DNA of 64,000 nt from Giardia intestinalis (lineage: Eukaryota): assembly GCA_000002435.2 (NCBI GenBank), contig CM018789.1. The stretch is one strand, 5' to 3'. The notes beneath the pieces are model-generated. The model was not told where the DNA came from. It was given only the letters and a program-made list of their open reading frames with translations, and did no database searches. The position numbers were made by a program, and so were the translations under genes. Shown one piece after another: positions 1-23,544 of this stretch (positions within the stretch are counted from its first letter, which is position 1; each line of letters starts with the position of its first letter).

Positions 1-812
1 CCTACCCTACCCTACCCTACCCTACCCTACCCTACCCCTACCCTACCCTACCCTACCCCTACCCTACCCTACCCTACCCTACCCCTACCTACCCTACCCT
101 ACCCCTACCCTACCCTACCCTACCCTACCCTACCCTACCCTACCCTACCCTACCCTACCCTACCCTACCCTACCCTACCCTACCCTACCCTACCCTACCC
201 TACCCTACCCTACCCTACCCTACCCTACCCTACCCTACCCTACCCTACCCTACCCTACCCTACCCCTACCCTACCCTACCCTACCCTACCCCCTACCCTA
301 CCCTACCCTACCCTACCCTACCCTACCCTACCCTACCCTACCCTACCCTACCCTACCCTACCCTACCCTACCCTACCCTACCCTACCCTACCCTACCCTA
401 CCCTACCTACCCTACCCTACCCTACCCTACCCTACCCTACCCTACCCTACCCTACCCTACCCTACCCTACCCTACCCTACCTACCCTACCCTACCCTACC
501 TACCCTACCCTACCACCCTACCCTACCCCCTACCCTACCCTACCCTACCCTACCCTACCCTACCCTACCCTACCCCCTACCCTACCCTACCCTACCCTAC
601 CCTACCCTACCCTACCCTACCCTACCCTACCCTACCCCTACCCTACCCTACCCTACCCTACCCTACCCCCTACCCTACCCTACCCTACCCTACCCTACCC
701 TACCCTACCCTACCCTACCCTACCCTACCCTACCCTACCCTACCCTACCCTACCCTACCCCTACCCTACCCTACCCTACCCTACCCCTACCCTACCCTAC
801 CCTACCCTACCA
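1..812 (-). repeat. Telomeric repeat array: (CCCTA)n on the plus strand = (TAGGG)n on the minus strand; physical chromosome terminus at coordinate 1
   Basis: About 160 tandem pentamers with sporadic variant units (CCCCTA, CCTA, CACCCTA, CCCCCTA). There is a sharp junction to unique GC-rich DNA at 812/813 (ccctaccctacc|aagtatcgcc). The G-rich strand runs 5'->3' toward position 1, as expected for a terminus. TAGGG is the established Giardia telomere unit. Confidence 0.95.
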
Positions 813-3435
813 AGTATCGCCCCCTCGTGCTCCAGGGGCGGGCGGCCCACATCCTCCCCGTCGTGGTCGGTGCTGACGGCGTCCTGCACCACCTGTCTGC
901 GGCCGGACTCGCGTTCGCCGGCGTGGACCTTGCGCGCTTCATGCAGGAGGCGGCGCAGGTCATCCTCTGGCACTACAGGCTGTCGGCCCTCCTGTACGCT
1001 GGGCTGCGAGTGGAGAGGCCGGTGCACCGCCCCGCCCCTGCAGTATCCCTGCCGGAACCGGCTCCCAACGAGGCTCGGGCTACTCCTCCTACTCCCCTCA
1101 CCCCTGCCATGTGGAGCCCTGGCACGTCGCCCTCCGTAGAGATCATGGCCGATCTCAGCCAGCATCCTGATGCGGCAGTCCCTCCTCCCTGGGGTCCTGC
1201 TGAGGTCTCCTCCTCGATCACCTGGGGCACCGATCACCCCGCACAGCCGGATGCAAACGAACGCCCAGACCCCTTCATGTGCTCAAGGGCCCCCTCCCCG
1301 CCTCCACTGGATGACGACAGCCCCGACGATGCAGGAGCACCCGAGCCGGTGCACAAGGCCCTGCCGTCCTTCTTCAAGCGCGTCGGTCCTCCCAAGCCGC
1401 ATGCCCCTGATGGCTTCTACCCCTTCAAACGCATCGACACGGGGCGCTAGTGGTCATGCTTGGGCACCCTGCCCGCTGTCGGCTGCCCCACAGCGCGAAC
1501 GGACCCCTGGGCCTGCGTGCCGAGCTGTCTCCCCTGGTACTCCTCGCTCGCACCCGAGGCCTCTTGCCCCTATCATTCGGGTGTGCATCACGTCCAGACA
1601 CGGTGCGATAGATGCCTAGCCGCGATGCCATACACACTCGACCAGGCCGGGCCAGGCCGGACGCCCCCCTGGATGGCCAGACACCCGCCCTGCCTACGTT
1701 TGGGCACTTCCTCGATGGGACTCGTCATCTGCCCACGCCGCAGCCCGGTGTTCGTCTGTCTGTCCTCCCGGGCAGCGGCGGTCCTTGGGTGCTGAGTCTG
1801 GCGAGCTGGTGCTGGGGGAAGAGGCTAGCCCCGTGTGTCATTCGTACCATCGCACCGCGCCGTGCTGATCCCCCCATGGAACTGCCCGCCAGTGGCCGCC
1901 TCCGGTCCGGGGCGGCACAGCCCTGGCTCGGGCCATCCTCTGCTGCAGCGCCCCGGTGCCCCCTGGAGAGGATGGCCGGGTGCTATGTGCTACTGAGCCC
2001 TCGGGTGCATCGCTTCCCCACTGCCCCCCCTCATGTACCCACTCTGGGCGCCCCGGTACAGGGAACCTGGTCACTCTGGCCCTGGCCTCCAGGTGCTTGC
2101 CCTCCAATGGGCCATCCCTCATGCGCCTGTGTTTGCCTGGCCCATTCTCCCCTGCTCCTCTCTACCTCTCCTGCTCGGTCTCCGCTGAGTCGCGGTGACG
2201 GCTGTTGACAGTCCCGGCCGGGCCCCCAGGTTTCGCTCCATACCTGGGCCACATGCCTCCCACCAGCGCTGGCACCACATGGGTTGCTTGTCACAGATGG
2301 GACTGGCACGCACAGAAGAATATGGCTCCACGGCGCTCTGCCGGTCTGTCCTGAGCTGGCGTCATCAGCCTGGACCCGCCCTTAGGGGGCCTCCTCCATC
2401 ACCCGTGCCTCCCCACACCACCTCCTAAGCCGTCAGTCTGCTCTCTCAGGCGTGACCTTCTGTCGGCCTCCTGGGCCGTATGGGACCACCGCCCCGCTGC
2501 CCCCGCCATCTTGGCCAGACGCCTCCGGTGAGCCACCATTCTGGAATAGCACGACACGTGTGGATGGGCTAGCTATGGTGCACGGTCCGCACCCTCCCTT
2601 CTCACGGACTCCCGGGGACAGTCCGGACGCGTCTCCCTTGTCCCCCGAATCGGTGGCCCCGGCCGATCCCCATCGTGCATCCTTATATGGGGCACTGCAC
2701 ACACCTGTCCACGCTGTCCCCTTGGGCCGGCCACAGCTCACCCCGTGTGTCGATGGGCCAGAATTTGGGCTCCCCAAACCCCTCCACCCCCAAGCTGTTT
2801 CCTCGCCGGTTCTCTGGGCTCGCGCTTCCCTTTTTAGTGCAACAGCATTATGGTGCCTCGCGTATGTGCGCGGTGCAGTGGGCCGGTCTGTAGGCCTGCC
2901 TTTGACTGGAATCCTGGATCCCTGGGTTTCTGGCCCGACGCGTCGTCTTCTACCCCCCAAACAGGCCTGCACTCTTCTTGGTCCACGGGCTATTTGTCTC
3001 TTTGTTTCCGCGGCCCAGGGCCTGCTGGTTGCGCCGGGGCGACGCTCATGGTGGATTTTATTTTTTCCAAAATCCAGAATTTGGGCCTGAAGACCGCCCC
3101 CGCAGGGCCTGGAGGATGCGGGGAATCGGTCCACCCACACCATGCGCTCGAGCAAAGGCCAAGCACCCACGCCATCACGTCTCATCCAGGACTCCTGCGC
3201 CGCCACGGAGGAGGATCGGCACCTTCGCCATCGATCCTCCAGGATGCCCCCCTACCACTCCCCCTCACATGGCACGCCTCCCTCGGGCCTGTATGTCTGC
3301 ATGCCGCTATGCCCTAACACCGCAGGCCGCCCTCTCCGCGGATCCACTAACACACAGCCTGCAGCGCCTGGCCCCCCTGGCCGTGACCCGCGCGCCCCCG
3401 CGCACAGGAGCATACCCCTGGAGCTGGGGAGAAGG

Positions 3436-3520
3436 CCCCCCTGGCCGCGCCCCCGCCGCGAGACCACGCGGGCACGGGGGCTGGGCGCCCCGGGCGGGCC
3501 CTTCCCCTCCGTCGTGAGGC
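3436..3520 (+). repeat. Direct repeat unit, copy 1 (about 85 bp, about 90% identical to copy 2)
   Basis: gggagaaggcccccctggccgcgcccccgccgcgagaccacgcgggcacgggggctgggcgccccgggcgggccc... recurs at 3810-3895; both translate to ...RRPxWPRPRRETTRARGLG... Confidence 0.8.
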
Positions 3521-3809
3521 TGCCTCCCCTCCAATGTCCTTACCGCCTTGCGCGCATATTACGTAGTAAACCGCCTCTGGCGTGCCTGGACCCGGCCCCC
3601 AGGGGGCCCCCTGATCTCCCTCCCGCCTGCTCCCTGGGGCAAGGGAAGCTGCCCTTCACACCCCCGCATGGTGCTATGCAGTATATGTTGCTATGTCCCT
3701 GCCACCCCCGCCCAGGGCCTCCCGCCAACTGACCCGCAGCCCCCGTCTCTGGGCCCGCCCGGCCGCCCGAGCTCAGCGCCCTCCGCGCTCGGCAGACCCC
3801 TGACGCCGG

Positions 3810-3895
3810 GGAGAAGGCCCTCCTGGCCGCGCCCCCGCCGCGAGACCACGCGGGCACGGGGGCTCGGGCGCCCCGGGCGGACCCTCACCCCTCTG
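3810..3895 (+). repeat. Direct repeat unit, copy 2
   Basis: Same about 85-bp sequence as 3436-3520, offset by 374 bp. Confidence 0.8.
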
Positions 3896-4283
3896 ATGGG
3901 AGGCTGCACCTCTTGTAGGACCTGGCGCACACGTAGAAGTAAATATCCCTCTGTGTGGGCCTCCCTGGACGTCAACAAGGGGACCAGGGCCCCGGTGGAG
4001 CTGTCGGTGGAAGGCCAGGCACTGCAGGGGAAGGGGTCTACTCCAACCGCCTCCTCAGCCACACACCAGCTTCCGGACAGAGCGGCGACGTACTGTCTGC
4101 AGATGTGCGGCGTGCTGACCGAGGAGGAAGGGGCCCTGAAGGAGAGGGGCGGCTCTATCATGGCGCAGAAAGAGGCACCTGCCCGGGCTGCCACGAGGCA
4201 CGACATGATCGTCGCGTGCCTGTACCTCCGCGTCTCGGGGAAGTTCAACGCAGAGCTGGAAATCAAGACCCACAGCCACCTCA

Positions 4284-4379
4284 GCGACCAGAACCAGAAG
4301 CCCGACATCTGGCTCGTCGACAGATGCAAGGCGGTGGGCGTGGGTGTCATCCAGCAACCGCATGGATACCACAGCGAGA
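4284..4379 (+). repeat. 96-bp dispersed repeat, copy A (inverted partner at 17141-17242)
   Basis: gcgaccagaaccagaagcccgacatctggctcgtcgacagatgcaaggcggtgggcgtgggtgtcatccagcaaccgcatggataccacagcgaga is identical to the reverse complement of 17141-17242, apart from one extra CCAGAA hexamer in copy B. It translates to ...DQNQKPDIWLVDRCKAVGVGVIQQPHGYHSE in both ORF-track entries. Confidence 0.9.
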
Positions 4380-5431
4380 GGACAGGGGCACAGGGACGTT
4401 CTCAACCATCTACGGGATGGACGGCTCCCCACTCCAAAGACGCCAGGAAGGCCCCGCGGGCACTGAGAGCCCTGTCCGGCCCTCGCTGTCCATGTGGCAG
4501 CCTAGTACCCAGGGACTCCTTCTGTCAGCCTATTTCCAACCACCAAGTGGACCCACTGTGGGACCAGAGTGACTACGGCTGAGAAGGAGTGCTGGCCCAG
4601 AACCACGGTCAGACGGACACCGAGGGGCAACAGAGGCGACTATCATCACTCCCAGAGAGCCACAGTGACAGGAGACATATCCGCTCTTAGGGGAAGCAAC
4701 GACCAGAGATAAATAACGACGCTCCCTCATAGCGAGCCACGGCCCCACCCACTTTCTATTGCCAGGATAGACTCTCACCGAACCAGGACCACCAGTGGAG
4801 CCGAAGTCCCAACGGCTACTGCCGTTGAGTCAGGTGGAAGCGATGTAAAACGAACGCAAAGGCCCGCCCTCGCCTGTTGTGAAGGATGGCTAAAGGGGAG
4901 GTCGCCACTAGCGGACCACACGAGGCTGTGAGAAGGTCAGAACTCTGGACAGACTGGCGTGCGAGCATCTCTGGAGGCACGCTCGGCCTGGGCACACGCC
5001 TGTGGAGCGATCGAAGGAGGCACCAGGCTCTGGACGTACTGATAGAGGAAACCTTTCACTATGCTATCCGCGATCACCCTTCCCTCCGGCCGTGACCAGG
5101 AAGCGGGGAGGCCCGCTCGTGAGGTCTCCGAATGCACCTGCAGGCCCCAGCAGCACAGCGCACTTCTCATGAGAACTGGACGGCATCCAATTTTCGCTTT
5201 TGGAGTCCAGAGAGGTGAGTGAGCAGAAGAGCCCCAATAAAAGGCTCCATTCACAAACTGGACCCAGTGCAGAATCTATCGTTGGCAATCATAGTACTAG
5301 CACTAGTTGCTTTTTACGCGTTGCTTCTGGATATGCGGGTCTTCAATGTATGGTACAGGCACTCTGCAACTGACTAGTGTGTCCGGCCACAGGCAAGCAC
5401 CGAAAAACATCAGCAATTAAAAATCTACTAA

Positions 5432-7795
5432 TGCTGGTATTATTGTTCCTCGCCGTGTTCTCTGGCAGCCCAGACAGACGACAGGCCTACTCCAGACAGG
5501 GGTACTCACTACGGTGTCTGTGAGGAGGACCAGCCTGATTGTGTGGAAATAGGTGCGCCATGCTCGCTCACGGGAGGCCTCCATGTACCGAATGCAAAGC
5601 CGGAAAAATCCCTATCGACGGAGAGCGTGTGGAGCCAGCGCACCAGGCATAGCTGTGTGTGAACAAGAAGGTGTTAGTGGCAGTGGAACACGCTGTAAGT
5701 CATGTGCTGGTGGAAATGGAAGTAGGAATACTGGTGACGGCGTAGGTTATTTTCTATTTTATGGGGGCTGCTACAATAATGATGAGTGGCCTGGCACAGA
5801 CATCTGCGAGACCGTTTCAAACGGGGTATGCACAGTTTGTGATACTGAGTATGGGGCTATTTTTACGAATCCAGATACTACCACCGATGAAAGACGTATC
5901 CTATGTCGTGATACGCTATCCGGAATGGAAGGCTGTGCGACCCGTGTGTCCCTTCCTCAGAATCCTGCGCCAGACAATGCAAAAGGCGCCACCAATCTCC
6001 AATGTACTTCCTGCTTAGATGAGACCAAAGCCCCAATCGATGGAGTATGCGCAACCTTTGGCTCTAACAGGTGCAGAAAGGATACTGTACTCATTGTGTA
6101 GTTGGTGCTTGTCTAGGAGCGGATGCTCGGTAGCAGTAAGGAGGGAGCTAAAGTATGTGCTGAGGTCAACCAAACAGAGATGGGTGGCTATTCTGCTTGT
6201 GCAGTGCACCAACACTAGTGAGGCCCACACAATGGAAACTGTAGGCAGGTAAGTATTTTACACAGCTGCCAAAAGGATAGCTCAGCCGGAATGTGCGCAG
6301 CTTGCAACCAGCATTTCTATGGTCGCCCTATCTTCCTGTACAAGGGCGGCTGCTACGTCATCACTGACCCATTGGAGACACCATATGCAAAAAGACGTTC
6401 AACGGTAAATGTACTATTTGCAATGAGGACCAAGGGTACTTCATGAAGGATTCGCCATGTACTAGATGCGATGAGTTTGTCCCCGGTTGCGCTGTGTGCA
6501 CCCCTAGCCCTGATGCCTCCAGTGCTCCTGTGTGTGCCAGTTGCAAGGCCGGGAAATATGCAACTGTAGACGTGCTTCCTGTGTCGACTCATGTCCATCG
6601 GGTAGCTCAGGTAGCTGCGATAAAAATAATGTCTGTAGCTGTAAGTGCAGTACAGGAACCTACTTGGATACTGTCACAAATACACATAGCACATGCAATT
6701 CAGCCTGTACGGGTCCTGGGGCTGATAAGTGCACGTCCTGTGTCTCAGGAAAATATCTCAAGCGTGATGCACCTGGTGCCATTGAATGTGTAGATTCTGT
6801 TGACTGTGGTGAGGGGTATTATGCAGATAGTGCCACTAACACTTGTTCTTCGTGTGGTATTGACAAGTGCCAGACGTGTGTGTCTGATAGTGGTGTGGTA
6901 AAGTGTATGAAGTGCCTTTCTGGGTATCTTTCCATCGATAGCCTTTCATGTCAGTCCCAGTGTGATGGACCAAATCAGCAAGGACATGCCAATGGCAAAT
7001 CCGTTTGCGAATGCATTGCAGGGGCTTATCTGGAGGGCTGTGTCCAGTGCGACTCAGCACGCCTGGAGTGGGTCCAGGGTCTGATCACTGCACAAGTGCT
7101 CCTCGGGAAAGTACACCAAGATGAATGGTTCTGACACGGCCACATGTGTCGACGCGTCTGGCTGTGGCGATGGATACTATGCGGATCCAGAAGAGCTCCA
7201 GTGTGCCACATGTGGAATTGAGAGCTGTCAAGCATGCACTCCTAAGGATAACAACCTCGTGTGCACACGGTGCTCCCCCGGACTTGTCTCCGTCGATGGC
7301 TTCTCGTGCCCACTCACATGCACGGAGCTGGATCAGAGAGAGGAGGATGGAAGGTGCGTCTGTGCAGAGGGCTTCGAGCCCAGCAGTGACGGCGCATGCA
7401 TCGCTAGGAACACCTGCCCGTCAGACGCCACGGGGTGCTCGAGTTGCAACACAAATGGCGAGTGTCTTTCATGTGCAGACAGCAGCCACAATGTCCAGCC
7501 GAGCAAGAGATCCTGCGCCTCAGGCTGTCCAAGCGGATCACAATCAGTCGGCTCTCTCTGCATATGCATAGAGGGGTACACCCTCAGGGGTGACACATGC
7601 GTCTCTCAGACCAGGAAGGCCGGCTCCAGCTCCACGACGATCATCGTGGCAGTCGTTGTCTCTCTTCTCATCATAGTGGCCGTCGCCCTCGCATGCTGGT
7701 TCGTCCTGCGGAGGCGGAGAGAATCGAGGGCAGCTTTGAAGACAAGGGTGATAGCTGAGAATATGAAGCTCGTGGGGACGGTGGACGAGCTCTGA
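5432..7795 (+). pseudogene. VSP/HCMP-like cysteine-rich surface protein gene broken by at least four frameshifts (pseudogene)
   Basis: An AT-rich initiator caattaaaaatctactaATG at 5432 is followed by a signal peptide MLVLLFLAVFSG. The reading frame then hops across three frames (ORF-track pieces 5553-6101, 6532-7134, 7121-7795 plus untracked segments). There are two GGCY motifs (YFLFYGGCY, FLYKGGCY) and many CXXC pairs. The C-terminus has a TM segment IIVAVVVSLLIIVAVALACWF and a long cytoplasmic tail (RRRRESRAALK...) of HCMP type, not CRGKA. Confidence 0.6.
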
Positions 7796-9416
7796 CTCTG
7801 TGGCCATGCGAGCCGCAGCTCATAACGAGTGAATGCTCAGTGATCCACAACGGGCTCAGGCAACCGCCTAGACTAGCAGATGCTTGGCTCCCGTGTGTAT
7901 GCCTTCTGAGCCATCGGCTTGGGGCAGACTCAGTCCCAGAAGCAGAGGGCGCCGGCCAGTGGAGAAGGCCTCACAGGCCTGTGCAGCCCGGACGGTGTGT
8001 GCGAAGCGCCGCCTCAGGCCAGGGAATCGTGTTCACCCCCACGGCGACAAGACTGGGGTGTAGCAGAGCTATGGTGCCATCCTAGCTGCCCCGAGAATAG
8101 TACGCGCCCCTGCTCTCATGCCCTCCTCCCCATTATGCGTGCCATAGGGATGCTTGTCCCGTTAGGTTCCGGGGGCCCAGCACGCCTCATCCCCCATCGT
8201 GACACCTTACCTGGCAACACGCACTGTGCTGTAGACTCTACGGTGGACCGTCGAGCTGCCACCTGCGATTGATTGCGGTGTCTTAGGAGGTCGATAGCCA
8301 GGTTCCCCGCACGGTGGCCTATCTCAGTGAGCGCTCGCAGAAGCCACAGAGCCGCTGGGGACGGCCTAGCTGGCCCAGAGCATCGACTCCCGTCAGAATC
8401 AATAAATAATGCGCAGGACGAGGAGCTCAGCTTTCGGCGTCTCGGCCCCATCGGATGGCCCTGCAGTCTTTGTGGGAGTGGGTTGCCCTGCTGCGTAGCA
8501 ATGCCACGCCTTCGCGTAGAGTCGACCCGGGCTAAAGCTCACGTGCTGGGGCCCACACAGGATGCTTGACCTTGCCTGGCGCCGGGCTGTGTTTCTTCAG
8601 TCAGATAGGAACAGACGAGCCTTGCAGGCAGTGATGGGGTGTGCCAACGACCCTGATCTCGGTGAGCGACGTGCGGTGCATGCAAGTGTGGGCTCAGACC
8701 ATGGGTGGTGCTGTCCTGGCCTTGTTCAGTCGCCCCACACAGGCCCAGAGGTCTCACTCGCACGGAGCAGAGCGAGGATGCGGCCCCCGCTCTGTTGCCG
8801 CGCTGTTGATCGGGAAAGCCGTTATCTATTCCTAAGAGGCTCTCCATCGGTGTCAGTGTCGACGCCTCCCACTCCAGCTGATATGCACACTGGCCAAAGA
8901 TGCGATAAAGGACCTCCGATCCTTGTAGCGCTACGATTGTGCCTCGCAGGTCGGGGGTAGTGGCGCTTGTGGAACTGTTCCTCGGTATCGGGTCCACGTT
9001 GGGTAAGCGTGAGGCACGCAACGAATGCCCCGATAGCACCACGGGATGGATGCCGCCACCATGGACAACACGTCGAAGCACCTGGCTTCTTCACCCATTG
9101 GAACACATTTAGCATGGTGCCCATAGCCAGTAGCTCAAGGGCCACAAGCGACTGGCACGCTATGATAATGACACTGTGCACATGAGCAGGCACGGAGCCA
9201 GTAACAGCCCGTCGCTAACCAGGACCAAACGAGAACGGGGCTTCTGCACTTTTAACTTATGTTATTGAGATGTGACACACCAAGCTTGCTCTCGGTCCAC
9301 AAGGCTGGTATCAGCGCCTCATGACAGTGAAACAGAGCACGCGCTAGTAGTATCCAGCATGCGGACCCAAAGGTCTTTTGGCGTATGTGTTGTTAATAGG
9401 ATAATAATTTCTCTGA

Positions 9417-10928
9417 ATGCTAGTACTACTACTATTTTCTATTGCTTTGGGATGTGCCTTGGGTACACCTTTTACTAACGAACCTGAACATGGAATGGGG
9501 GTCCGCTTCACCCGACGCGGACTGGAGAAGTTCTGCCAGAAGGGCTACTCTATCATTCCTGACGTTATCTCTGCTCTTCCAGCGTTTCCAGAGATACCCA
9601 TAACTGTCGGGTCTTTGAAGCTTACCCTCTCGAATGTGAGGCCTCGTGCAGTGCGTGTTTCAACCATGAAGGTCTACTTGCAAGACAACAACTTTGTCAA
9701 GATGGAGGCCCGGGACGGCATCATGCAGATCTCGATGCGGCTTAAAACTACCATCACTGGGATCACCGGGACCGTCGACTGCATCTTCACCCTCAAGGAC
9801 TTCGGGGCAGACATCTCTCTGAGGCTCGGAGACGACCCCACCTGCCCCTACCACTTCGGGCTCTCCGAGATATCGAACGTCGTGTACTCGTCTGGGCTCG
9901 ACATCGATGCGATCGGACTCGACACAGGCGGGTCTGTCCTTGCAACTGCCATCCAGGGCATGGCGCCCACGTTGGAGGATTTGATGAAGAACACCGTGTT
10001 GCAACTCCTCTTTAACACAATCTTCAATTCAATAAAGCAGTCAATGCTCAACCTGCCCTTAGTTGTCCAGATCGGTGATGACTATCTGACTGACCAGCGC
10101 TACATCAACGGCATCAATGTCGTCGATAACAAGATAGTGGCAGACCAGGGTGGGTTTTCAATGATCGCTACTATCCCAGATTGGTCGGTCAGAGCTCTCT
10201 ATCCAAACAAGATCACCTCTCCCCCTCCGAAGACAGTCTACACCGACAGGGACTATGAGTTCTATGTAGACAGGGAATCAGTTAACTCCTACCTGTATGC
10301 CTGGCACGTGGCGTATGACAAGTTCAAGGCAGACGGTCTCACTGTCCCGTACAGCACCATCAGGGCGCAGAACATACCCGGCCTTGCAGAGGCTCTTGTG
10401 AAGGCCGGACTACTAAGCACTGTTAACGACCTTGGACTCGGGGTCACCCTGACCCTGTCTGTCAGTCCCTCCAAGGATGCCGCACCCCACATACCGTGGA
10501 TCGGGGCGGCTGCACTACCGGTCAACCTCACGGGGGCACTCGTTGTGACAGCTAGCAAGGTATCAGACCAAACCCCTGTAACTCTGGCCAACCTTGAGGG
10601 CGACGTGCTCTTCTCTTCTGCGCTCAAGCTTAAGAAGTTTACCTATGGATTTAACAACGACCAAGTTCGTGCATATGTAGAGCTTCTTGGAGTGCACGAT
10701 ATCGCCACCAAGAAGCACAGCGAAGGGATGGATGATCCTGTTCCTCTGCTGAAGCGTCTTCTTCTAGATAAGTACCTCCCCCTTGTTAACCCGATCCTGG
10801 CCGAGACAGGGGTGGCCCTCATGAACGGGAACTTCATCGACTATGCCACTGTCGACGTCATTTATCTGTGCAGCGAGGACAGGGTGCTCTTCGTTGCCGA
10901 CATTGAGAAAAACCAGTACTTTGCTTGA
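9417..10928 (+). CDS. BPI/LBP/CETP-family lipid-binding protein (bactericidal permeability-increasing-like), secreted
   Basis: 503 aa with a signal peptide MLVLLLFSIALGCALG. The N-terminal segment FTRRGLEKFCQKGYSIIPDVISALPAFPEIPI..LKLTLSNV aligns with the BPI N-terminal domain (..ISQKGLDYASQQG..IKIPDYSDSFKI..). The two-domain length fits. ATG at 9417 is preceded by AT-rich aggataataatttctctgaATG. Confidence 0.6.
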   Translation: MLVLLLFSIALGCALGTPFTNEPEHGMGVRFTRRGLEKFCQKGYSIIPDVISALPAFPEIPITVGSLKLTLSNVRPRAVRVSTMKVYLQDNNFVKMEARDGIMQISMRLKTTITGITGTVDCIFTLKDFGADISLRLGDDPTCPYHFGLSEISNVVYSSGLDIDAIGLDTGGSVLATAIQGMAPTLEDLMKNTVLQLLFNTIFNSIKQSMLNLPLVVQIGDDYLTDQRYINGINVVDNKIVADQGGFSMIATIPDWSVRALYPNKITSPPPKTVYTDRDYEFYVDRESVNSYLYAWHVAYDKFKADGLTVPYSTIRAQNIPGLAEALVKAGLLSTVNDLGLGVTLTLSVSPSKDAAPHIPWIGAAALPVNLTGALVVTASKVSDQTPVTLANLEGDVLFSSALKLKKFTYGFNNDQVRAYVELLGVHDIATKKHSEGMDDPVPLLKRLLLDKYLPLVNPILAETGVALMNGNFIDYATVDVIYLCSEDRVLFVADIEKNQYFA

Positions 10929-13900
10929 ATGCTGTACCGCAGACTATCTACTCGTGCAGACCGGGGCTATACCGTACTAGTAGCCCTACTCGGACGAGGG
11001 GCGTCACTCTCAATCCAATATTCAGATATAAGCACTTGTGTACACTCCTAACCAGTATGCTAGTCATAATAGTAGCTGTCTGATTACCAATATGATGCGC
11101 CAATTGACTGTATAAGCGGGGGTTACACTTGCTGCTCTGATAGCGGTTATAGACAGGATGCTCCGACAGATACACGTCTAGCAGGCTTGATTATCCAGCA
11201 TACTGAGACTCCAGGATACAGAGCAGACCCATACAGAGACACGCCCACTACGTGCTATGTGCTGTGTTGCCGGATCCCCTGCCTGTGGATATGGCCCACG
11301 ACTTCACGAGTAAACCCACGGAACTTTGGCTATGTCTGAAAATAGAGGCATGCCTTTATGAAAAAGTTGGTTGTTATTACATTGTGGGCCTGTTCTCCTG
11401 TCCCCGTCACTGTGGTGGGGCTCCTTATTAACGACTCCCGCCGGCTAGAAGCAGATCGCACCGGGTGACGGGTCCAGTCCATCCCACAGGTCAGCTCGTC
11501 GGTACTCATTTCGTGGTACGTGTACGCGTTGACTGCTCGGCTACCTAGCTTGTAATGACGATACTGAAGGGGAGCTCAACTCTAACAGAAGCTTTCTCTG
11601 TCTCTGGGCCAGATGAGCAGCACAAGGATTGCCAGCCGGCTCAACCTCAAGGCGGCGTAACATCTCCTAAGCACACCCCTTGTAGTTGTAGCAGAATACA
11701 CGAGAAACGAGAAAACCCGGGAGACTATATCCTCACAAGGGGATGCACTAGCCAGTGGCTTGCACAAGGCCCATTCGTTTTGCAAACTAGCAGATCATTA
11801 CTCAGGGGCACACAGGGTTGTGAAGTCACTAATATCCCTTTGACTAACTGCAAAAACTACTGGCGCCTCTCTACGCCACGGTAGGGGTTAGCAGGTCTGT
11901 GGAGGGCGCGAGACTTAGCTATCTGCGTTTAGACGAGATCCGATCCTTGCTTTGTGTCGCCTAAGAAGTCAGGGCTCTACTCGACGGCAGACATAGTTTA
12001 GAGACTAATCGACACACTAGAAACGACAGATGTAAAAAGTTTGCAATATGACAAGTGGTATGGATCGCGACACAGCCTTTCTCTGCCTTGGACAGGCGCG
12101 TCTGGGAGTAGGACAGGCGCGGACATCTTGCCATGGCCTAGCTGGCGGGTGCCTGGGCATGTTCAGTGATATAGACTACTCTCGCAGTGTGTGTAGATGC
12201 GTCGGTACTGCGTAAGAGTGGCGCATAAAGACGGTAATTTGCTATGAAAATCCGCCAATCCATCCACTGTAATAAGCACGGGCTAGTTGAAGATCTGCTG
12301 GACCATCTTTACAGGCACCGCCTTCAGCAAGTGGCCTTTTCTGGACCAAGAGCGTGACAGGCCCTTTGTCCTTGGCCCCTTCTGTCCGCCTGCAGCGCTT
12401 TCGTGACCCGGCTAAGGGGAGCAAGCTGTACACCCTTTACCAGGGAGCGATGAGCTGAGCATCAGACAGTCAACTGTAGATGTTTCTGTAGCCCTTGTTC
12501 TCATTACTCTGTAGAGGGTTACCACACACCTTTTCTACTCTGTGCAGGATGGCGCTCCGGCGCACATGAGGTAGCATGGAGATGCACCAGAACAACTGGC
12601 AGTCTTCGAAGCGTAGTGCTAACCAGTCAACGCTGCTGTCTATTCTGGCCTTCCACAATGGAGAAGGGGCCAGAGCAGAGCCAAGGGAAGCTAACCTTTG
12701 ACCCTTTGCCCTGGCGTCGGCAACCAGAAGGACCAACAAGGGAGCGCCCTACTGAGCTCTTAGGCATATTAATGTGAAGGAATATCTGGACCGCTGATTT
12801 GGGTGGACGGCTAGATGAGCCCTCGGAACCAAGTTGCATCATGCATCAGGGTGTGCGGCGGCAGGCTGATAAGACTCGGGGCAAGCATGCGCAACAAAAA
12901 CCTCGAAGGCTTAAACGGCATAGACCCTGACACACGATAATGCCCTACTTTATCTTTTGGCTTTTCGGGCCTCGGAGAGATAGCGACAGGATAGCAGTCA
13001 GCCACATGCCTTTCATAGATACATACTGCAGTACTTACAAGTGTCTGATCCTAACATTTAGTGGCCTATCACTCGAGCGGACGCCAGCCCCTGTCTCCAT
13101 GGTACCTACACTAATGAGCCCTTCTCCGAGCATAGTAGTAGTGATGATTTCATCGATGCCTTGCTACTGTGTGCACTTCTACAGCTCTTAAGGAGATGAC
13201 AGCCGCTGAATGTACGCATCCATATTACCTCTACACACTGTTCTTCAAGGCTCATCTGCACTCTTTGGGCTCCTACTCATCCCTTGGCCCTTTGGTCTGC
13301 AATTGCTTGTCTCGTGGTTATTCGAATCTTTATTGTCTGCTACGGCGATCTTGGATTGCCGCATACATTGCACGCCTGACAGATTCCTTTAGGATTGACA
13401 ACGCAAGGCTCTGGCTCCTAGATCGTAAGTAGGCACGATCATTGATTACCTGTGTGGATGCTAGCTCGTACCATCGCAGCTGCTTCTGTAATGAATTACC
13501 TCGGGCGGTGGATCGACAGCATTGACGCACAGCTCACTGTGCCACTGTGCACTTTGTAATCTCATGGTGGCTAATATTTAATGTTAGAGGATCTCCAAGT
13601 CAGATACAAGACGATGATTTTGTAGTGCCGTAGTGTCGTTCGGATGCAACAGAGCGCAAAGGCCAGCCCATATCGAGGTCGAGACCGAGAGCAATCAAAT
13701 AGCAGCCAGGAGATTCACTGCGCATTCCTGTCGCCTTTTGCCAAGATGGAGTGCCAAGTGGGCCCACGAACAGGGGCTGTCGGACTGTTCTTTGCTCGCT
13801 GCCCTCTAGTTAGCCCTAGGCTTCAAGGTTCGGGGTATTCTTCTGCCATATGAGATTCAGCATGTAACTTAGAGCACTCTGTTACTGGCCGAGTGTTCAG

Positions 13901-14652
13901 GGTCTTGTTGTACCGCGATATCCAGGATCTCAGGACATACGTCCAGGAGTGAGGACCCGAGTAATAATGGCAGGCTGAGTAAGAACAGACTTCACCCGCA
14001 CATTGGGCGCCGACAGCTTGCCGGTTCCTCAAAGGAAATTTATCAGCTATCCAGTACACAATCGTCCATTCGCACTCTGGGGAACGCAGCATTCTGTTTG
14101 GTTGTTCACCATAGGGTCGGTTGTATGGAGCCCATGATCAGCAGGCGGATGAGCCTCCTCATCATCCTGGCTAGCTAGGGACGATTCTTTGGCGCTAAAG
14201 GTCACAAAGGGACGAACGAGTGCCAGCGAGCAAGAACATCAGAATGTGCTACAGCTGCTTTTATGGGACTCGTACCCTCAAGAAGGTATACTTATCTCTG
14301 CTCTGACCTACCAAGCTAGATCATGGCCACTGTGCCTCTTGGGATACGACACGTTACAGCACTTGCGTACCCAGATGATGCTGCACAAAAAGTTGTATTA
14401 TCGACTGATGCCTCGCGTTGGTCATTCATCAAGCCCGGGGGCCATGGAGAGGGCCACACCACCAGCGAGGTCTAGTCCCATCAAACCTTCTTGTTACATG
14501 ATACAGAGTGCAGCGAACAGGGGAGTAGGAACCTCTCAGGATTGTGGCACTTAGGGTTCTACCGCCCAGCCGTGCCACATGGATGTCAAGGGTCAGCCAC
14601 AATCACTCCGCTTAAGGATTTATTTTTGTACTTCTCATTGACTACAGACACA

Positions 14653-15862
14653 ATGCCATGCAACATAGACCTCAGATACCGTATCTTACTCCTCGTTGCA
14701 GCGATGATGACGGCAGGCGCCCTTGGTATTCTTCAGAAAGGTCTCATACTATATGAAGGGCAAGAATGTCGAAGGCCAGCTGGAGCTGTACGACAAGGTG
14801 TGGATTCCAGCCTTTTTCATGTTCCTTGGTGAGAGTATCGGCCTGGGAGTTTTCTGCATAAAGCGGTGCGTCATTAAAAGGAGCATCTCCAAATCGTCTC
14901 CTGATATGGCTGCCGATAGTGCAACGAACTTCGAGCAAGAGAATAGCACAGCCCTCAAGACATCATGCACACATCTGTCTATGCAGAGGCAGCTCCCTCC
15001 GCAGATCGCTCGAAAGAAAGCAAGGAAGCTTATGGTGGGTCCACTGCCTTGTTGGAAGTTCGTGCTTGCGACGGCCTTCAACACTGCTATGCTATACATC
15101 TCGGTGTCTGCGGCCCAAAGCCTTCGGGGGTTCACCATCGTCTTTTGCCAGATCCTTGCAATCCCCCTGTTAAAAAGGAGACCGGAGAGGTGGGAGATCA
15201 TGGGTGTTTGCTTTGCGTTTCTAGGACTTCTCCTAGTAGACGTCGCCATTGCGATCCAGAAGCGGGAGCACGGAGACACCCTCGAGACTACCATAGGGGT
15301 CCTGCTCGTCGTCGGCGGACAGATCTTCTCTGCCACGCAATACCTTCTAGAAGAGAAGACCTTCAAGAGCCGGGCCATAGACTCTCTGCTAGGTGTTGGC
15401 TGGGAGGGTGTCTGTGGCGTGATCCTGTCGCTGTGCGTTGCGTGCCCGCTGGCACACGTGATGCCTGGCAGCGACCACGGGAGCCTGGAGAACTATGCCA
15501 ACTCGCTGTACATGTCCTTTGTCAACGGAAACATACTAGCCATGAATCTCCTATATGCGCTATCCATTCTACTCTTTAAATGGTCCGGGCTGGTTGTCGG
15601 GAAGATTCTTACTTCAACCCATCTGTCTCTATTTGATAACTTGAGATCACTGCTGATATGGGCCATCATGGTCATAGTATACTACTCGACGAGGCACTAC
15701 AGTCGCCCATATGGAGAGCCCCTCACTCCGTATTCGCTTCTGGAGCTGCTGGGGTTCGGTGTACTAGTCTTGGGCATCGTGGTCCACAACAATGTTCGTG
15801 GACTCGGCGTAAGGGCCACTTGCAGGGGTGAGCGGAGGATAACGCCGGGCTCCCCCAAATAA
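14653..15862 (+). CDS. SLC35F6-like (DMT/EamA superfamily) multi-pass transporter; reading frame interrupted by an apparent +1 frameshift near 14745-14755
   Basis: Matches human SLC35F6 segment by segment: VWIPAFFMFLGESIGLGVF~FQHPFLQAVGMFLGEFSCLAAF; QSLRGFTIVFCQILAIPLLKRRP~QMLRGAVIIFTGLFSVAFLGRRL; EKTFKSRAIDSLLGVGWEGVCGVILSL~EKFVYKHNVHPLRAVGTEGLFGFVILSL; FDNLRSLLIWAI~LDSLRTVVIWAL. TM1 (MPCNIDLRYRILLLVAAMMTAGALGILQKGLILY) is encoded from ATG 14653 in frame 1, and the rest in frame 2. The ORF-track start at 14723 is a TTG; the first in-frame ATG of the long frame is 14753. Confidence 0.55.
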
Positions 15863-17140
15863 CAGCCTGGCTGGAGTGACCGGGCCACTGACTATTGTAA
15901 TCCTGTCTTCGCACAGCGACGTGCCCCGTACTGTGCATATTGTCATAAAGCGGGGAGGGCCATCCTCCTGACCCAGTAAATTATGGGAAGCCCAATTGAA
16001 ACCTGAAGCGTCGAGTGGCCTGATCGAGACAGTGACCATTCCTAGAGCTGTATTTGTGTTTCCTATCTTTTACTAGATTGGTATGCATCAGTCTGGAGCA
16101 TTAACATCTGTAGGGAATATAGTTGTCGTGCCATGGTCATTGAAGGTAGCGGCTACACGGTCCGTCAGGCAATATGCAGTACACCATATGCCCCTATGTG
16201 ACCTGCAGCGATGCGTGAGCCTGCGTATGGTGAGTCACTCTCCCATAGACTGCCTCCAGGCCGTGCTTCATCTTCTATCTGGCTGGACACCTAATTAGTC
16301 ACCCTACATTCGCTGACTGACATGTATGGCCTCTAGTCTGACTGCTGGAGCTACTTGTCTTGGTCTTGAGCTCTGCATTGAACTTCTCTGACAGGTAAGG
16401 CACAGACAGACGACCATGCCATGCCCGTAGCCTTCTCTCATGCAGCCAAGGCTCTGCATCCGATGGCCAGACCTTAACGGCCATCTACCGAGCTCGGGCA
16501 CATCCTAGGTCCAGCACAGCACTAGGCGTTACTGGCAGGAGTACCTTGTATCTCACAACTTTACTGATGTCCGTTATAGATTATACTAATGGGCCCTCAT
16601 ACTCCCAGTTTACAACTAGAGCATATAGAGTCCTGCAGTTACCGTCTCAACTGAGTACTACGTCCCTCGTAGATAGTAGCGGCATTAAGGCTGGACGCCA
16701 GAGCTGGCCCCAGACAGCTGAGTTAGCAAGGACACGTTACCATGGAACGGTGCGTTAGAGGTTGCCTATGTGGTGCCTGTTCAGTCTGAGCGTAGGCGTC
16801 AGGGGATTTCGCATCTGGTCTGTTGAGGTCCAGCCCTCTGCAATCTCGGGTAGACTCTAGGTGGTACCTCCCCTATGACATGTCTGGTGGGCGAGGGATA
16901 AGGGCACTGCTGGCCTTTCCAGGTGTTCCCATCTGTCTCGGTTGCAGCCATTGGTGGCCCTGGTCATACGGGCCCGTCCATGATCAAAAGCACACTGACA
17001 GAAGGCAGTCGCTCTGAGTGGCCTCGTCGGGTGCTCACTCCCTATAGGTGGCGTAAGGCCATGGACAGAGGACTCCTCGAGGTGCTTCTTGGACTTGGGG
17101 TGGAGGGATCCGTCTGTCTCGTCCTTGTACTTCTTGACCT

Positions 17141-17242
17141 TCTCGCTGTGGTATCCATGCGGTTGCTGGATGACACCCACGCCCACCGCCTTGCATCTGT
17201 CGACGAGCCAGATGTCGGGCTTCTGGTTCTGGTTCTGGTCGC
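17141..17242 (-). repeat. 96-bp dispersed repeat, copy B (102 bp including a CCAGAA hexamer expansion)
   Basis: Reverse-complement identity to 4284-4379. An additional weaker match (aagttcaaYgcagagct, encoding KFNAEL) lies contiguous in copy A (about 4240) but about 750 bp away in copy B (about 16380). Confidence 0.9.
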
Positions 17243-17494
17243 CGGGCTGGTCTGATCTCTGGCCCATGTTGCATTCCCCGAGACACAGAGGCAACGATTG
17301 CACGGGGCCCCTAGTTGTCGCTTTGCACCAGTGGAAGGGAGCCCCTGCTTGCCGTCTACGATCATCCCATCCTCAGAGAGCCTGGCCTGGGCGGGCTCTG
17401 AGTGCGCCTCAGGCGGGCCCAGCAGCACAGCCCTAGAGGTGGCCGGGTGGAGTGAATCATCGTGGGATGCACGTAAGGAGCGCACAGGTCCGGG

Positions 17495-20400
17495 GCGCCC
17501 GAACAGGCCCAGCCCTCGCACCGGCTCCCCCGGTCGCCTCAGTCGCGGCGCTAACAGGAAGACGCGTGTCCTGTTCGACGACCCGGCACACGGACCGACG
17601 GCCGGCGGACCGCATGGCAAGGTGGAATAAAAAGTTTGAAACGTCGGCGCTCGCGCGAATCGGAATGCGGCGTTCTCCGGGCTGGGAGGCCGTGCGTGCG
17701 GGCATTACCTCTAGCATGTTCCTCACCACGGTCCCAGGCTGATGGGCGGCCGAGGCCTTGTCAGCGTCACGCACGCCTCTTGCCGGCATTGGGCCGCCCG
17801 GGATCGTACATAGGCAGGGCTGCAGAGGCCTTCCGCGGCTCCTGCGGGCAGTCGCCTGCTGCGGAGAGCACGCCCAGCTTGGGAGCTCCTCAGGATCACC
17901 GTGCAGGTCATCGAGACCGGTTCGACGGGCCCACGTTGAAGGAGGCGCATGGGCCGGTGAGCGTGCCGTCTTTGCAGGCAGGCTCTCGCTGGCCGGGTGG
18001 CGGGGCTCTCCTGTATCTCCGCCGGAGGACGCCCTATCTACTGGCAGCATTTCCACAGTTGCAACGCTACAGGGGCGGGCTGCAGCTCTTCCGCAGGACC
18101 TCGTCGGACGGGCAGTTGGCGTACTCTCACGTGCACTCGCAGGAGCTCCCCGCCCTCGTAGAATAGCACCCCGCGCGCCCCAAAAAGCCAAATCGAAATG
18201 CAGCAGGTGCAGTCGACTCTTCTCGGGTTGTGGCGCTGATCCAATCAGACGCCGCGGCACGCCCCGAGCAGGCCTCGTCCAGCAGCGGGTGCTCTAGCCG
18301 CGCCCCTGAGGCAAGTCTGCTTCTGACCCCGTCCCTGTGCCGACCCCAGCGAGCCCCCGACGGCGCTGGAGAAGGAGCGCCTTGCGGAGCCCCTTACTGG
18401 CCCCTCGGTGCAGGAGGATCCCCGGATTACCGATTTGCGTGCGGCAGCCGGCGGGGCGCCCCGGGCCATCCTTACATCTACATGTCCAGCGAGTGCCGCA
18501 GCGGGCCGAGATGAAGCCGCGGGCGCCGATGCCGGGGCGCTGGCCACGGAGGCTGCAGCGTTAGTAGCCAGGCGAACCCCTTGGTTCGCGTTTTAGTTTT
18601 TGGGGTCCCAAGTTAGCGCCCCCGGAGCAGCACCGGCTGTACACTGTTCACTGCACTCGGTCGGCCGGATGGTGTAGCAGCTACGGCTACTCTAATTACG
18701 GCGCTTGATGTGTTTACTGCTGGGGGGTGCTGCTCTCCGTTCTACGGGGTGGCAGGAGTGCTCCCGCGTGCAGGTAGTACCAGTGGACGCCCCTCAGCTG
18801 CCGGGCCGGAGCGGCTCTTGGATGGGTGGACCTATCCTCCTCCGTGCGGCCGTCCCTCGGGCCTAGTAGACGTGCCTTGCTGTGTCCCGCAGCCCGGATC
18901 CTTGCCTTCAGACGCCAGCACGGAACTCTCTAAATTTGTCCTCCTGTGACATCCTATGCTGCCATGCACACTTCGTTTCTAGCAGGCCCTTAAGGTTGCA
19001 GCCCAGGACTACCGGCCCCCACATCATCAGATATGGTTGCTGACTGCGGCCGCCTACGCAGTCGCAGCTGGTTCCGCACTGGCCCTGTATCGGTAGCCTT
19101 GGCCTGCATCGCCGGTGTGCGGCCCACTTCGCTCTGCGGGTGTACCACGTATAGTTACCAGCCTCGTGATGTGGTGCACCGCTGGGGCAGATCCTAGCGG
19201 CAGTAATCCTGCAGCCCCATGTGGTCGTCTGGCAGTGGATGCGAAGGTTTGCAGGCGGGAGCGGAAGGTCGGGATGCTCTTGCCCACGTCACCGGGCGCC
19301 GTGGTCAAGGGCTCCGAAGACATGCCCAGCCCTCCGCTGGACGAGGATCGATGGGCCGCTCAGAGCCCCGCAAGCTGCGTCCAGGCTGGTATTAGGTGGC
19401 CCAATGACGTGGCGACGGGAGTTGTGAGGCGAGACCGCCACACGCCGAGCGTCGGGCCATTGCTACACCGACTCCCCAAAGGGACACACTCAGCCCGGGG
19501 CCGGATGTCCGCTTGTGTCCCAGAGTGAGCGCCTTGCATGCTTGCCGCGAGCAGCTATCTAGGGCTCGAGGTTAGCGGGCGGGCTCCAGCTATCGCCCCC
19601 TCATTGTCTCGGCCACCGGGACAGAACTCCCTTCTCCGGAGACGTGATCCTCGGGCCTGTGTGGCTCCCCTTCTTTGGAACGGGCTGGCTGTAGCCCTTC
19701 CGTATCATAGCCAGTGCTCTCTGAGGCCCTGATGACGCGCGGCTGTGTCTTGCACGTGTCGCTACAGTGGGACCCGCGCCTGTCCGTCCTTGCGTCGCCT
19801 ACGGTGTAACCAGGGGCGACCCGGGCACGCTCCTATCGGCACATGGCGCCCTCCGCTGTGCTGGCTCCTGACGGCAGCCCACTCTACCGGGTCTGGTACT
19901 GCAAGGACCACCTATAGTGGGGGCAGGCGGGTGCGTCTACGCATCACCTCTGCGCTGTAGACAGTAGACGGCACGCCATCAGTTAGCACAAGATCCGGTC
20001 CGCGTCTTCTCCGGCTCTGTATCCATCGGGCTATGCTAACCATTACTATAGCCGCCCTATGACAGAACTAGGCCTTGCTTCGCAGAAATCCAAAAACAGG
20101 GGTCGTAGATCGGGCGGCGCGGGTCGCCCTCGGGCTAATCCACTGCCGCGGCACGGCCACTGCGGGCCCGTCCAGGTGGCCATGGAGCTGGGGGCGGCCT
20201 CGGTCGAGGATCATCGCTCGACGCGCCTCTCCTGCAGCGGCCAGGGCGTCCCGGCCGGTCTCGGGCGACGAGGACGCTATTGAGGCACGGAGAAGTACGG
20301 TGGCCCACAGGATTCGGCGGGGGGCCGGATCGCGCAGAGCTGGTTGAGGAGACTAGAGCGCCAGCCAGGCCGGGGCGCCGCCGGGGAGGCTGATATGGGT

Positions 20401-20722
20401 TTAGGTTACAGCGGGGGCATCTGGGCCGTCGTCTGCTGGCTCCAGGGCAGAAGAGCGGTAGACATGCCGGGCGGTCCCGCTGCTTATTTTTGGATTTTCT
20501 ACTCTTTCACGCTGCATAGAAGGGGTGAGATCTTAGGAAAAACCGGGCTTTGAGGGTCTACTGGCATCGTGAAAGAGCAGTAGGCTGTACAGTGACGCGT
20601 TTACTACCTAAGTGGATGCCACTTACGCCTTCCCCCGACAGATGAACCACCAGCAGAGGAACCCTATGAGGCCCCCGACGACGACGATGGCTGCGACGGA
20701 GATCCCCGCGATGGCGCCAGTG
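17495..20722. repeat. Left arm of a 3.2-kb-arm inverted repeat (partner 25515-28742); symmetry x <-> 46237-x
   Basis: ORF-track entries are mirrored with a constant coordinate sum of 46237 (e.g. 20344-20553+ vs 25684-25893-; 18230-18514+ vs 27723-28007-). The arms are indel-free from about 17640 to 20620, with only a few amino-acid substitutions visible (E/K; PSR/TFR; A/T, P/H, V/M). The arm is about 68% GC with no recognisable gene. The inner end overlaps the last ~35 codons (~100 nt of conserved tail) of the VSP CDS. Confidence 0.9.
20599..20622 (-). promoter_or_regulatory. Conserved VSP 3' end / extended polyadenylation signal, mirror copy for the minus-strand VSP
   Basis: Exact reverse complement of 25615-25638 (the two positions sum to 46237). 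Confidence 0.75.
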
Positions 20723-22266: not shown

Positions 22267-23544
22267 TGCGGCCCGCGCAGCCCTGTCACGCAAGGTTATG
22301 GCAGCTCCACTTACCGCGCTTATACCCTTTCATGACGCTTGCCTATGCTGTATGACACACTGACAGAGATTACCCTTCATGTGGGCCTGCGTTGAGAGGT
22401 GGGGCCGTGCTGATTCCACCTTCGTGTGACTGGCCGGCTGTGAAACGGACCGATCGATGTAAGCTTCCTCCCTTGTGTTGCAAGGCATACCATAGTAACG
22501 GCTACACGGCGGTCATGTTTCGCTCTTCGCTGTGATGTGAGGGTTTCCTGGCGACCAGCTCTCCTGCTGTGCCAGTCACAAGGTCTGCCAAGGGACTCCT
22601 AGATTCTCCTGAATGCCTGACCAGCGACCCGATGGAGCCAGCCGTGCAATGTCCAGCAGCCCCGAGCCACGGGTCACCAGTGCATGCCTCGAACACTGTC
22701 CCCCCGAGATTCCACTGTTGAAGCCCGGCAGGAGCGATGCCCCGTGGAGGATGGCTACGTTCTATCGCGACGCACTGTGACTGTCCCCCTGCTCAGGGAC
22801 GCCGTCTGTCATACGACCCAACCCGCTTGCACCACAGACTATTGGTGAACCCGCCCCCTGTCGACTCCCACGCACTGAAGGGCCCTACTGACCACTTTAG
22901 AGACCGTCCTTCGCCGGTCGCAGGCCCCTCTAAAGGAACTGGTGCCTCACCTGTTCCTATCTGGGATGGTTCCGCTACGGTGGACAGCCTTCGGGCACGC
23001 AATGATGTCCCAGCACCCCTAAAATGGTGGTTCCCCACTTGACCGGCTCTAGCCAGCCGCACCACAGCGTCTCCCAGACACGAGGGGTACCTCCGCGCAC
23101 TAGAGAAGAGGCAACACTGGGGAGGCTTGATGCTATTCGGGCTGCCCGCTCCCTGCTGGCGAGGGGTAGTAGGGCCGTAGACAAACCAAACCGTTGCTAT
23201 GCCTCTGGTCGGGTGCCCGGTTCCTCGAGTCGTGGCCGAGGGTGATCATCCAGCCGATACGCAGGGCGGCCACTGATACTGCCATCAATGAAATGCTCTT
23301 GTGCGCGAAACTCTCCTAGCAAGGCTAGTCCTCAACTAGCTGGCCAGAGGGCGGGCTACGTGCTATCTGAGAGGATAGCTAAATCTATGTTTTGTCGTAA
23401 CGGGAAGGTTGGCACCGGATCAGCTCTTTGGGTCTTTGGCATCTTTGACGCGATATCTAACAAGTGCGTTACTGAATGGCTACTTAGAGAATAGAGTCAC
23501 TGGTGAAATGTCTGCTTACGCTAGCAGTGCCTCGATGGGCCTCA

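Follow-up and report, generated by a model that had tools for sequence, protein, structure and literature searches.

A perfect 93-nucleotide inverted duplication near a Giardia chromosome end: segments of decayed retrotransposon endonuclease remnants, probably made identical by recent ectopic recombination

In a 64,000-nucleotide (nt) stretch of Giardia intestinalis DNA (contig CM018789.1 of assembly GCA_000002435.2; the window in what follows) a block of about 96 nt is present twice in inverted orientation, and the question raised by this locus is why so short a tract should be the same at two distant places. The initial annotation reported this inverted duplicate together with a hexamer expansion, and both were confirmed. 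Positions 4287–4379 on the plus strand are 100% identical over 93 nt to the reverse complement of 17141–17233, and when the hexamer region is included, 4284–4379 equals the reverse complement of 17141–17242 save for (CCAGAA)2 in the first copy and (CCAGAA)3 in the second. Within positions 1–25000 it is the only inverted repeat of its kind. Chance is excluded as the source of the 93-nt run, because its probability is p ≤ 2e-5 under the most generous assumption of a flank identity ≤ 0.86. The reading that we favor, with a probability of roughly 0.8, is that the two copies are segments from the catalytic core of decayed retrotransposon endonuclease remnants, that their identity is due to recent ectopic recombination, and that they have no function of their own. 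The features that bear directly on this reading are as follows, with the canonical and variant sub-types defined further on.

4284–4379, plus strand: copy A of the block, encoding ..DQNQKPDIWLVDRCKAVGVGVIQQPHGYHSE, with (CCAGAA)x2 at its 5' edge
17141–17242, minus strand: copy B of the block, with (CCAGAA)x3
3953–5140 (at least), plus strand: remnant A, a 5'-truncated, frame-broken retrotransposon tail
17120–17440, minus strand: remnant B, variant-type 5' part
about 17119–16860, minus strand: 3' remnant of an older, canonical-like kind, joined to remnant B (ETDGSLHPKSKKHLEE...)
16322–16431, minus strand: a third remnant of this tail, far older, covering the RHD..KFNAEL..KPD region and 67% identical to copy A

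The block had been placed in non-genic DNA, a reasonable guess, but it is in fact decayed retrotransposon coding sequence and forms an open frame in both copies (..DQNQ(NQ)KPDIWLVDRCKAVGVGVIQQPHGYHSE..). Nor does the identity end abruptly on both sides, as had been thought: similarity of lower identity persists beyond the perfectly matching stretch (86% over 157 nt by BLAST and sensitive self-comparison), and the remnants reach approximately 1.2 kb (A) and 0.6 kb (B), well past the block. A check of each of the two real copies by tblastn placed the family only at approximately 3953–4709 (plus strand) and 17407–16860 (minus strand). The second, weaker shared piece described near copy A and some 750 bp from copy B is real insofar as the 17-mer AAGTTCAAYGCAGAGCT occurs exactly at 4241–4257 (plus strand) and 16369–16385 (minus strand), where none would be expected by chance. 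The piece near 16380 belongs, however, to the third remnant and not to copy B, and the idea of an intron/exon arrangement or a processed copy was rejected on this ground. This third remnant, which shares the strand of remnant B, follows it head-to-tail at 430 nt past its end and is also present at the orthologous locus of isolate DHA2.

To what family the block belongs was established from a database protein search, the query of which joined the upstream part of copy A to the downstream part of copy B, so that identity and coverage values refer to this chimera. The search returned 30 relatives, all from Giardia, all fragments of at most 232 amino acids and mutually frame-shifted. Several of them carry the name "Reverse transcriptase/endonuclease, putative," and the block is thus part of a gene family already annotated in Giardia, an outcome that the initial annotation had itself named as refuting its reading. 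Two metagenome scans with the halves of the block as query gave no match. In the best-preserved relatives, P0001 and P0004, the motifs CPGCH..H...C, RHD, KPD, D at 12 residues further on, and EK.KKY were found in that order. The experimentally defined motif order of the R2 restriction-like endonuclease is CCHC, RH, (K/R)PD-D/E, and K..KY (PMC4838377). In that definition CCHC stands between RT and endonuclease, RH belongs to alpha-helix 1, K..KY with its catalytic lysine belongs to alpha-helix 2, and RG.W comes after beta-strand 4. The family consensus is therefore like R2-type endonucleases in its motif order, and also in the C-terminal position of the domain, downstream of the reverse transcriptase (RT).

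Where the family consensus has KPD followed by D 12 residues later (KPDIWLVDKCKAIDVGV), the spacing agrees with the (K/R)PD and D/E at approximately 12–14 residues that would be expected. It is this part of the domain, KPD together with the second acidic position of the catalytic site, that the block of copy A covers, and both window copies keep KPD but carry G in place of D at the second acidic position (AVGVGV). In the RH motif, R85, H86, and D87 are nearly invariant in the family alignment (A1), upstream of PD and in a predicted helix; copy A still has the motif (..ATRHDMIV..), which has degenerated in copy B (..EDGMIV..). The K..KY motif, EK(V/L)KKY in the family, is kept right after the block in copy B (EKVKKYKD) and has been wiped out by small deletions in copy A. 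The CCHC motif (CPGCHTAR.LDHDMNC) is seen in P0001, P0003, P0004, P0010, and P0017; copy A has lost it by deletion (AQKEAPARAATRHD), and copy B lacks it too. No RG.W motif was recognizable downstream of K..KY in the same alignment, where the region reads RDGTLPIIYGTDGSLHP. The family thus differs from the R2-type enzymes by the lack of RG.W, and the window copies differ further by the loss of CCHC (A), RH (B), and K..KY (A) and by the G at the second acidic residue. Judged from these motifs, the window copies are predicted to be inactivated derivatives of a restriction-like endonuclease.

Early-branching clades of retrotransposons without long terminal repeats (non-LTR) that bear such an endonuclease include R2, R4, NeSL, CRE, and GENIE (PMC4838377, PMC2790886). 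In L003, a further copy of the family, a Pfam RVT_1 domain was found approximately 700 bp upstream of the tail, and 1.9 kb of element body upstream is common to L001 and L003. Because of the R2 motif order, the RVT_1 domain upstream, and this shared element body, the tail is assigned on sequence grounds to an ancient group of endonuclease-bearing non-LTR retrotransposons, to which the Giardia GENIE clade also belongs. Within the window itself, no RT body of this family was detectable. A Pfam search gave no match for the two short copy translations, and the family itself is not in Pfam.

Taken by its described properties and not by a sequence comparison, the family is most likely GilD, which a second group named Genie 2. 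Three non-LTR families have been described in Giardia, of which GilM and GilT are telomeric and GilD is dead (PMC10999387), the "dead" family being that of Arkhipova and Morrison (2001) as cited in PMC2861651, PMC5537684, and PMC10999387. Copies of GilD are disrupted by microhomology-mediated deletions and lie in gene-poor regions next to VSP genes (PMC2861651). The family of the block is alike in its Giardia host and in being known from degenerate copies only (internal deletions, substitutions, and frameshifts). A VSP gene or fragment is found within a few kb of window copy B and of L001, L002, L005, L006, L007, and L010, and deletions in the family are flanked by microhomology, such as 15 nt between two CGAC in L010 (read off the alignment). 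The better-preserved family copy has an RT domain upstream of the tail. The likeness to GilD is incomplete in that one remnant, A, abuts a telomere-capped element, though GilD is described as non-telomeric.

For the anatomy of the remnants, seven further copies served as the reference set, and figures of the form x/y/z are matches, mismatches, and gaps. Two sub-types were distinguished. The canonical one is represented by L001, L005, and P0001 and the variant one by L010 (the same as DHA2_151188 and P0026) and L003. The variant is marked by lesions just 5' of the block, by a 6-nt deletion and an altered second half of the block, and by characteristic deletions downstream; pure variant copies also have deletions of 12–15 nt inside the block. 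Remnant A is canonical up to 4325 (49/2/0 and 40/2/0 against L001), keeps RHD near 4196–4204, and is variant from 4326 onward (54/0/0 against L010, then approximately 86% out to 5140).

Remnant B is variant from approximately 17440 to 17243 (142/16/9 against L010/P0026). The first half of its block (17242–17195, approximately 45–48 nt) is canonical in type and identical to copy A, with 20/5/23 against L010, and contains CAGATGC, which occurs in copies A and B and in no other copy fetched. The last 54 nt of the block (17194–17141) are again of the variant type (54/0/0 against L010 of DHA2). After the block comes KVKKYKD, with 21/21 matches to L005 (counted by eye on the alignment), followed by a deletion junction of 16–21 nt and the older 3' remnant at 16860–17119, which has 49 matches and 11 mismatches against L005 compared to 30 and 19 against L010. 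Both window copies are frame-broken by frameshifts and deletions. The two remnants are therefore subtelomeric mosaics of the two sub-types, 12.8 kb apart in inverted orientation and strongly diverged around the block.

The DHA2 contigs L003, L009, and L004 tile the window from 3953 to 17125, with identity falling toward the telomere (84.6, 92.8, and 96.6%, respectively). The 96.6% of L004 extends over window positions 13765–17108, and the 3' remnant at 16860–17119 is orthologous to this contig (95–98%). DHA2 L004 keeps a decayed TLSVIC segment that is missing from the window and has unrelated DNA upstream. The two isolates part completely at window positions 17108–17125 or thereabouts, with a flavohaemoprotein-like gene in DHA2 and a VSP cassette in the window. 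It was also observed that the breaks between DHA2 contigs coincide with the points where the retrotransposon remnant ends.

Three observations point to a recent exchange. First, identity between A and B is 51% upstream of the block, 97% in the 96-nt block (100% over its 93-nt core), and 42% downstream, while the block exceeds its flanks in conservation in none of the 27 other pairs of family copies. Because this contrast is unique to the A–B pair, the block is best seen as the product of a recent exchange between A and B and not as a constrained module. Second, copy B contains a patch that is incongruent in type, being variant on both sides of the canonical-type first half of the block. Third, the orthologous DNA of isolate DHA2 differs by 3.4–7.2% and the A/B block by nothing, and the exchange is for this reason probably younger than the split from the DHA2 isolate. 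Very recent homogenization at this locus is also indicated by the neighboring 3.2-kb inverted repeat, since it is perfect over 2.5 kb. An analogous case was found within DHA2, where L003 (approximately 5103–5283) and L010 (approximately 10246–10425) share a near-perfect tract of approximately 190 nt centered on the same endonuclease core (41/0/0, 76/3/2, and 63/0/0), with unrelated flanks upstream and flanks 82–89% identical downstream. This suggests that the endonuclease core of the remnants is a recurrent site of patch exchange.

As to how the exchange came about, we infer that a break in remnant B would have been repaired with remnant A as the template and without crossover. The 54-nt variant-type core, already common to the two copies, probably served as the priming site of the repair. 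The adjoining approximately 45 nt would then have been copied until repair ended in the CCAGAA repeats, where misalignment may have left one extra hexamer in copy B. The direction A to B is slightly, though weakly, favored.

Several points weigh against this account. The references for the variant sub-type, L010 and L003, are both from a single isolate, and exchange has taken place between the two themselves. If no deletion had yet affected the first half in the ancestral variant, that part of the block may not be foreign in B, and the direction would be open. The label GilD was given on described properties only. An AlphaFold2 model of P0004 built from 14 sequences reached a mean pLDDT of 36 and did not confirm the endonuclease fold; its predicted order of elements (H82–101, E104–108, E121–125, E132–134, and H139–148) is compatible with that fold but unreliable at such a score. 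A profile search against PDB gave no relevant match. The flanks, lastly, are complementary, with A having a canonical 5' and a variant 3' side and B a variant 5' and a canonical-like 3' side. Such flanks are not predicted by plain conversion and would be expected from a crossover.

A repair event with crossover is accordingly the strongest competitor of the conversion tract, and although we consider it doubtful it deserves to be set out in full. A pure canonical tail adjoining the telomeric element and a pure variant tail adjoining the VSP cassette, in inverted orientation, would have taken part in the repair of a double-strand break; the gap would have been filled from the variant parent, leaving the same block in both products, the flanks would have been exchanged, and the 12.8-kb segment 4380–17140 would have been inverted. 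A single event of this kind would account for the two junctions together with the identity of the block and the hexamer difference located at a junction, and the flanks are indeed reciprocal chimeras (A passing from canonical to variant, B from variant to canonical-like). Parents of the necessary kinds exist as well. Pure canonical copies are known (L001, L005, and P0001), and in the contiguous pure variant element P0026 (DHA2_151188, L010) the 5' half matches the flank of B and the 3' half the flank of A. Without the inversion, canonical tail and third remnant would follow the telomeric element head-to-tail in a single orientation, as has been described for Giardia chromosome ends (PMC5537684).

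Against this, what the DHA2 contigs L003, L009, and L004 cover is confined to the inner segment, and they have no outer flank in common with the window. The variant parent would need an undeleted first half of the block, unlike L010 and L003. The far-upstream part of copy A has a 19-nt deletion in common with L003, its probable DHA2 counterpart, which suggests that collinearity of copy A with its ortholog may extend to either side of the block. Mosaicism and short patches without crossover are common in the family, and with approximately 100 bp of homology, mitotic crossovers occur less often than simple conversions. A simple reciprocal crossover in the middle of the block was rejected outright, as the halves found in copy B are those of copy A and not the complementary ones. 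Should the crossover nevertheless be correct, the block would mark the breakpoints of a recent 12.8-kb subtelomeric inversion (4380–17140), and remnants of the endonuclease core would be recurrent hot spots of recombination that reshuffle the surroundings of VSP genes, a proposal which we regard as doubtful.

It is improbable that the identity is an artefact of assembly or polishing, in which short reads of one remnant "corrected" the other. The identity is known from one assembled sequence, and the adjoining 2.5-kb perfect inverted repeat makes the region repeat-rich and hard to assemble. The block is nevertheless bounded where one would expect it on biological grounds, by the hexamer repeat and by the point at which homology ceases to be alignable. 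Copy B has an additional hexamer, unlike the outcome of copying reads across, and the analogous patch in DHA2 comes from an independent assembly of another isolate.

A functional non-coding module under selection (a structured small RNA, a source of small RNAs, or a protein-binding site) had been offered as one explanation of the block and is, in our view, very improbable. In its favor are the 93 nt of perfect identity amid diverged surroundings and the small sense and antisense RNAs reported from Giardia telomeric retrotransposons (PMC10999387, and a reference given in PMC1950533). A small RNA found no support from folding, with z-scores of −0.3 to −0.6 for both strands of both copies, nor from Rfam, which gave no match at the gathering threshold or at E ≤ 1. 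A protein-binding module is unsupported as well. Against a selected module of any kind, the block is at most as well conserved as its flanks in every other pair of family members, the pure variant copies have their 12–15-nt deletions inside it, and across it the third remnant reaches only 67% identity. The 54 nt identical in A, B, and L010 were considered separately as a selected module; this was rejected, since exact runs of 55–61 nt occur elsewhere in the same alignments.

Of the remaining proposal, a recent transposition or a gene-conversion fragment, the second half survives as the best explanation, and the first, by which both copies would be young insertions, or one a retrotransposed fragment, from the same active master element, is the least credible of all: the sequence does belong to a retrotransposon family, but the identity spans only 93 nt between flanks 42–51% identical and of different sub-types, both copies are frame-broken with D changed to G at the catalytic residue, the window contains no RT body of this family, not one of the 30 database relatives is more than a fragment, and part of remnant B predates the split of the isolates because it is common to DHA2 at the orthologous site.

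The surroundings of the two remnants are those of a chromosome end, as the initial annotation had reasonably guessed in asking whether the copies are subtelomeric. The further features are as follows.

1–811, plus strand: (CCCTA)n telomere array, which Tandem Repeats Finder gives as CCTAC x160
812–3952, plus strand: 5'-truncated end of a different non-LTR retrotransposon, telomere-capped
20623–22293 (minus strand) and 23503–25614 (plus strand): two head-to-head VSP genes (Pfam VSP)
17492–20734 and 25503–28746: inverted arms of 3.24 kb each flanking the VSP pair, the context of copy B (region 17492–28746)

The (CCCTA)n array at the start of the window is the complement of TAGGG, the Giardia telomere repeat (PMC10999387, PMC7000408). 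Together with the VSP genes, which match the Pfam VSP family with E = 8e-84 (20623–22293) and 2e-53 (23503–25614), this repeat identifies the window as a Giardia chromosome end. Both VSP open reading frames (ORFs) end at the C-terminus in CRGKA, after which AGTAAAC follows. Ribosomal DNA was considered as an identity for the GC-rich DNA next to the telomere and rejected, there being no Rfam match to ribosomal RNA.

Directly after the telomere repeats, the element at 812–3952 has an intact ORF remainder of 207 codons (827–1450) that reads inward. The beginning of this ORF can be aligned with the last part of the endonuclease domain in the block's family (37% over 30 residues, E = 1e-4), and its sole database relative is a metagenomic fragment, P0031, that is 39% identical. 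The ORF is followed by approximately 2.5 kb of GC-rich DNA, presumed to be the 3' untranslated region (3'UTR), and the stretch ends in AGTAAAT at 3939–3945, which we take to resemble the Giardia polyadenylation signal AGTRAAY. The homology of remnant A begins at 3953, immediately after the element. Within the presumed 3'UTR there is a 135-nt direct repeat (3392–3523 and 3776–3907, 86% identity, 384 bp apart).

Telomeric retrotransposons of Giardia have been described as 5'-truncated and telomerase-capped (PMC10999387, PMC5537684), and GilM and GilT are characterized by an intact ORF and tandem head-to-tail arrays at telomeres. The element at 812–3952 resembles GilM/GilT (Genie 1) in that it is 5'-truncated and telomere-capped, with its ORF directed away from the chromosome end and a long 3'UTR, and it is probably a 5'-truncated, telomerase-capped retrotransposon of the GilM/GilT kind. 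No relative bearing a family name was found for it, and the Genie-1 primers published in PMC1950533, used as a probe for the telomeric element, had no match in the window. It is distinct from the family of the block, with which it shares only the 37% over 30 residues at the end of the domain. GilM and GilT do not fit as the source of the 96-mer itself, since its family has no intact copy and the telomere-capped ORF (827–1450) is a different, distant sequence.

On the other side of the locus, self-comparison showed the arms at 17492–20734 and 28746–25503 to be 99.4% identical, the nearest of them lying 250 bp from copy B. There are zero differences over 17613–20118 (2.5 kb), and the differences that exist are grouped at the ends of the arms. 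Each arm starts inside the last approximately 110 nt of VSP coding sequence. Neither Pfam nor tblastx detected any protein-family or retrotransposon-body content in the 3.24-kb arms. That they might be the RT body of the element was rejected for this reason, with no tblastx match from the bodies of L001 and L003 and no match in Pfam. The zero-difference stretch is either the result of a very recent duplication or homogenization or else an assembly collapse.

Two further ORFs lie between the remnants. The one at 9417–10928 (plus strand) encodes 503 amino acids and belongs to a multi-copy Giardia family named BPI-like/lipid-binding serum glycoprotein; its closest matches are at 95% (a short metagenomic contig), 89% (DHA2), and only 81% (the WB reference protein). 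An exact look-up returned no record for this window protein, nor for P0026. The other, at 14723–15862 (plus strand), adjoins remnant B and gave weak matches to the EamA/SLC35 transporter families. It is kept at the orthologous DHA2 locus in L004 and serves as a synteny anchor.

The consequence of these findings is in the first place that a candidate "conserved non-coding element" can be removed and replaced by transposon debris with a recombination footprint, which is of little weight in itself. The locus does offer a clean and datable case in which repeats that are very short and diverged exchanged sequence ectopically through homologous recombination, in a Giardia subtelomere beside VSP genes and in an organism whose capacity for homologous exchange is still under debate. 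If the crossover were true, dead retrotransposon remnants would drive structural change around genes of antigenic variation.

Dead retrotransposon remnants shaped by ectopic recombination are a known kind, of which this locus is one more instance. A further comparison is with ectopic gene conversion and crossover among dispersed subtelomeric repeats, such as the recombination of the var/VSG type (bioRxiv 10.1101/2023.02.27.530335, PMC1635262). The two are alike in that a short perfect tract is set in diverged paralogous sequence, and the window further resembles these systems in its VSP-rich subtelomere and in the freshly homogenized inverted repeat that adjoins the tract. They differ in the substrate, which in the window is a dead transposon remnant and not an antigen gene, with no effect on the VSP repertoire shown, whereas in the var/VSG type it is the antigen genes themselves that exchange sequence.

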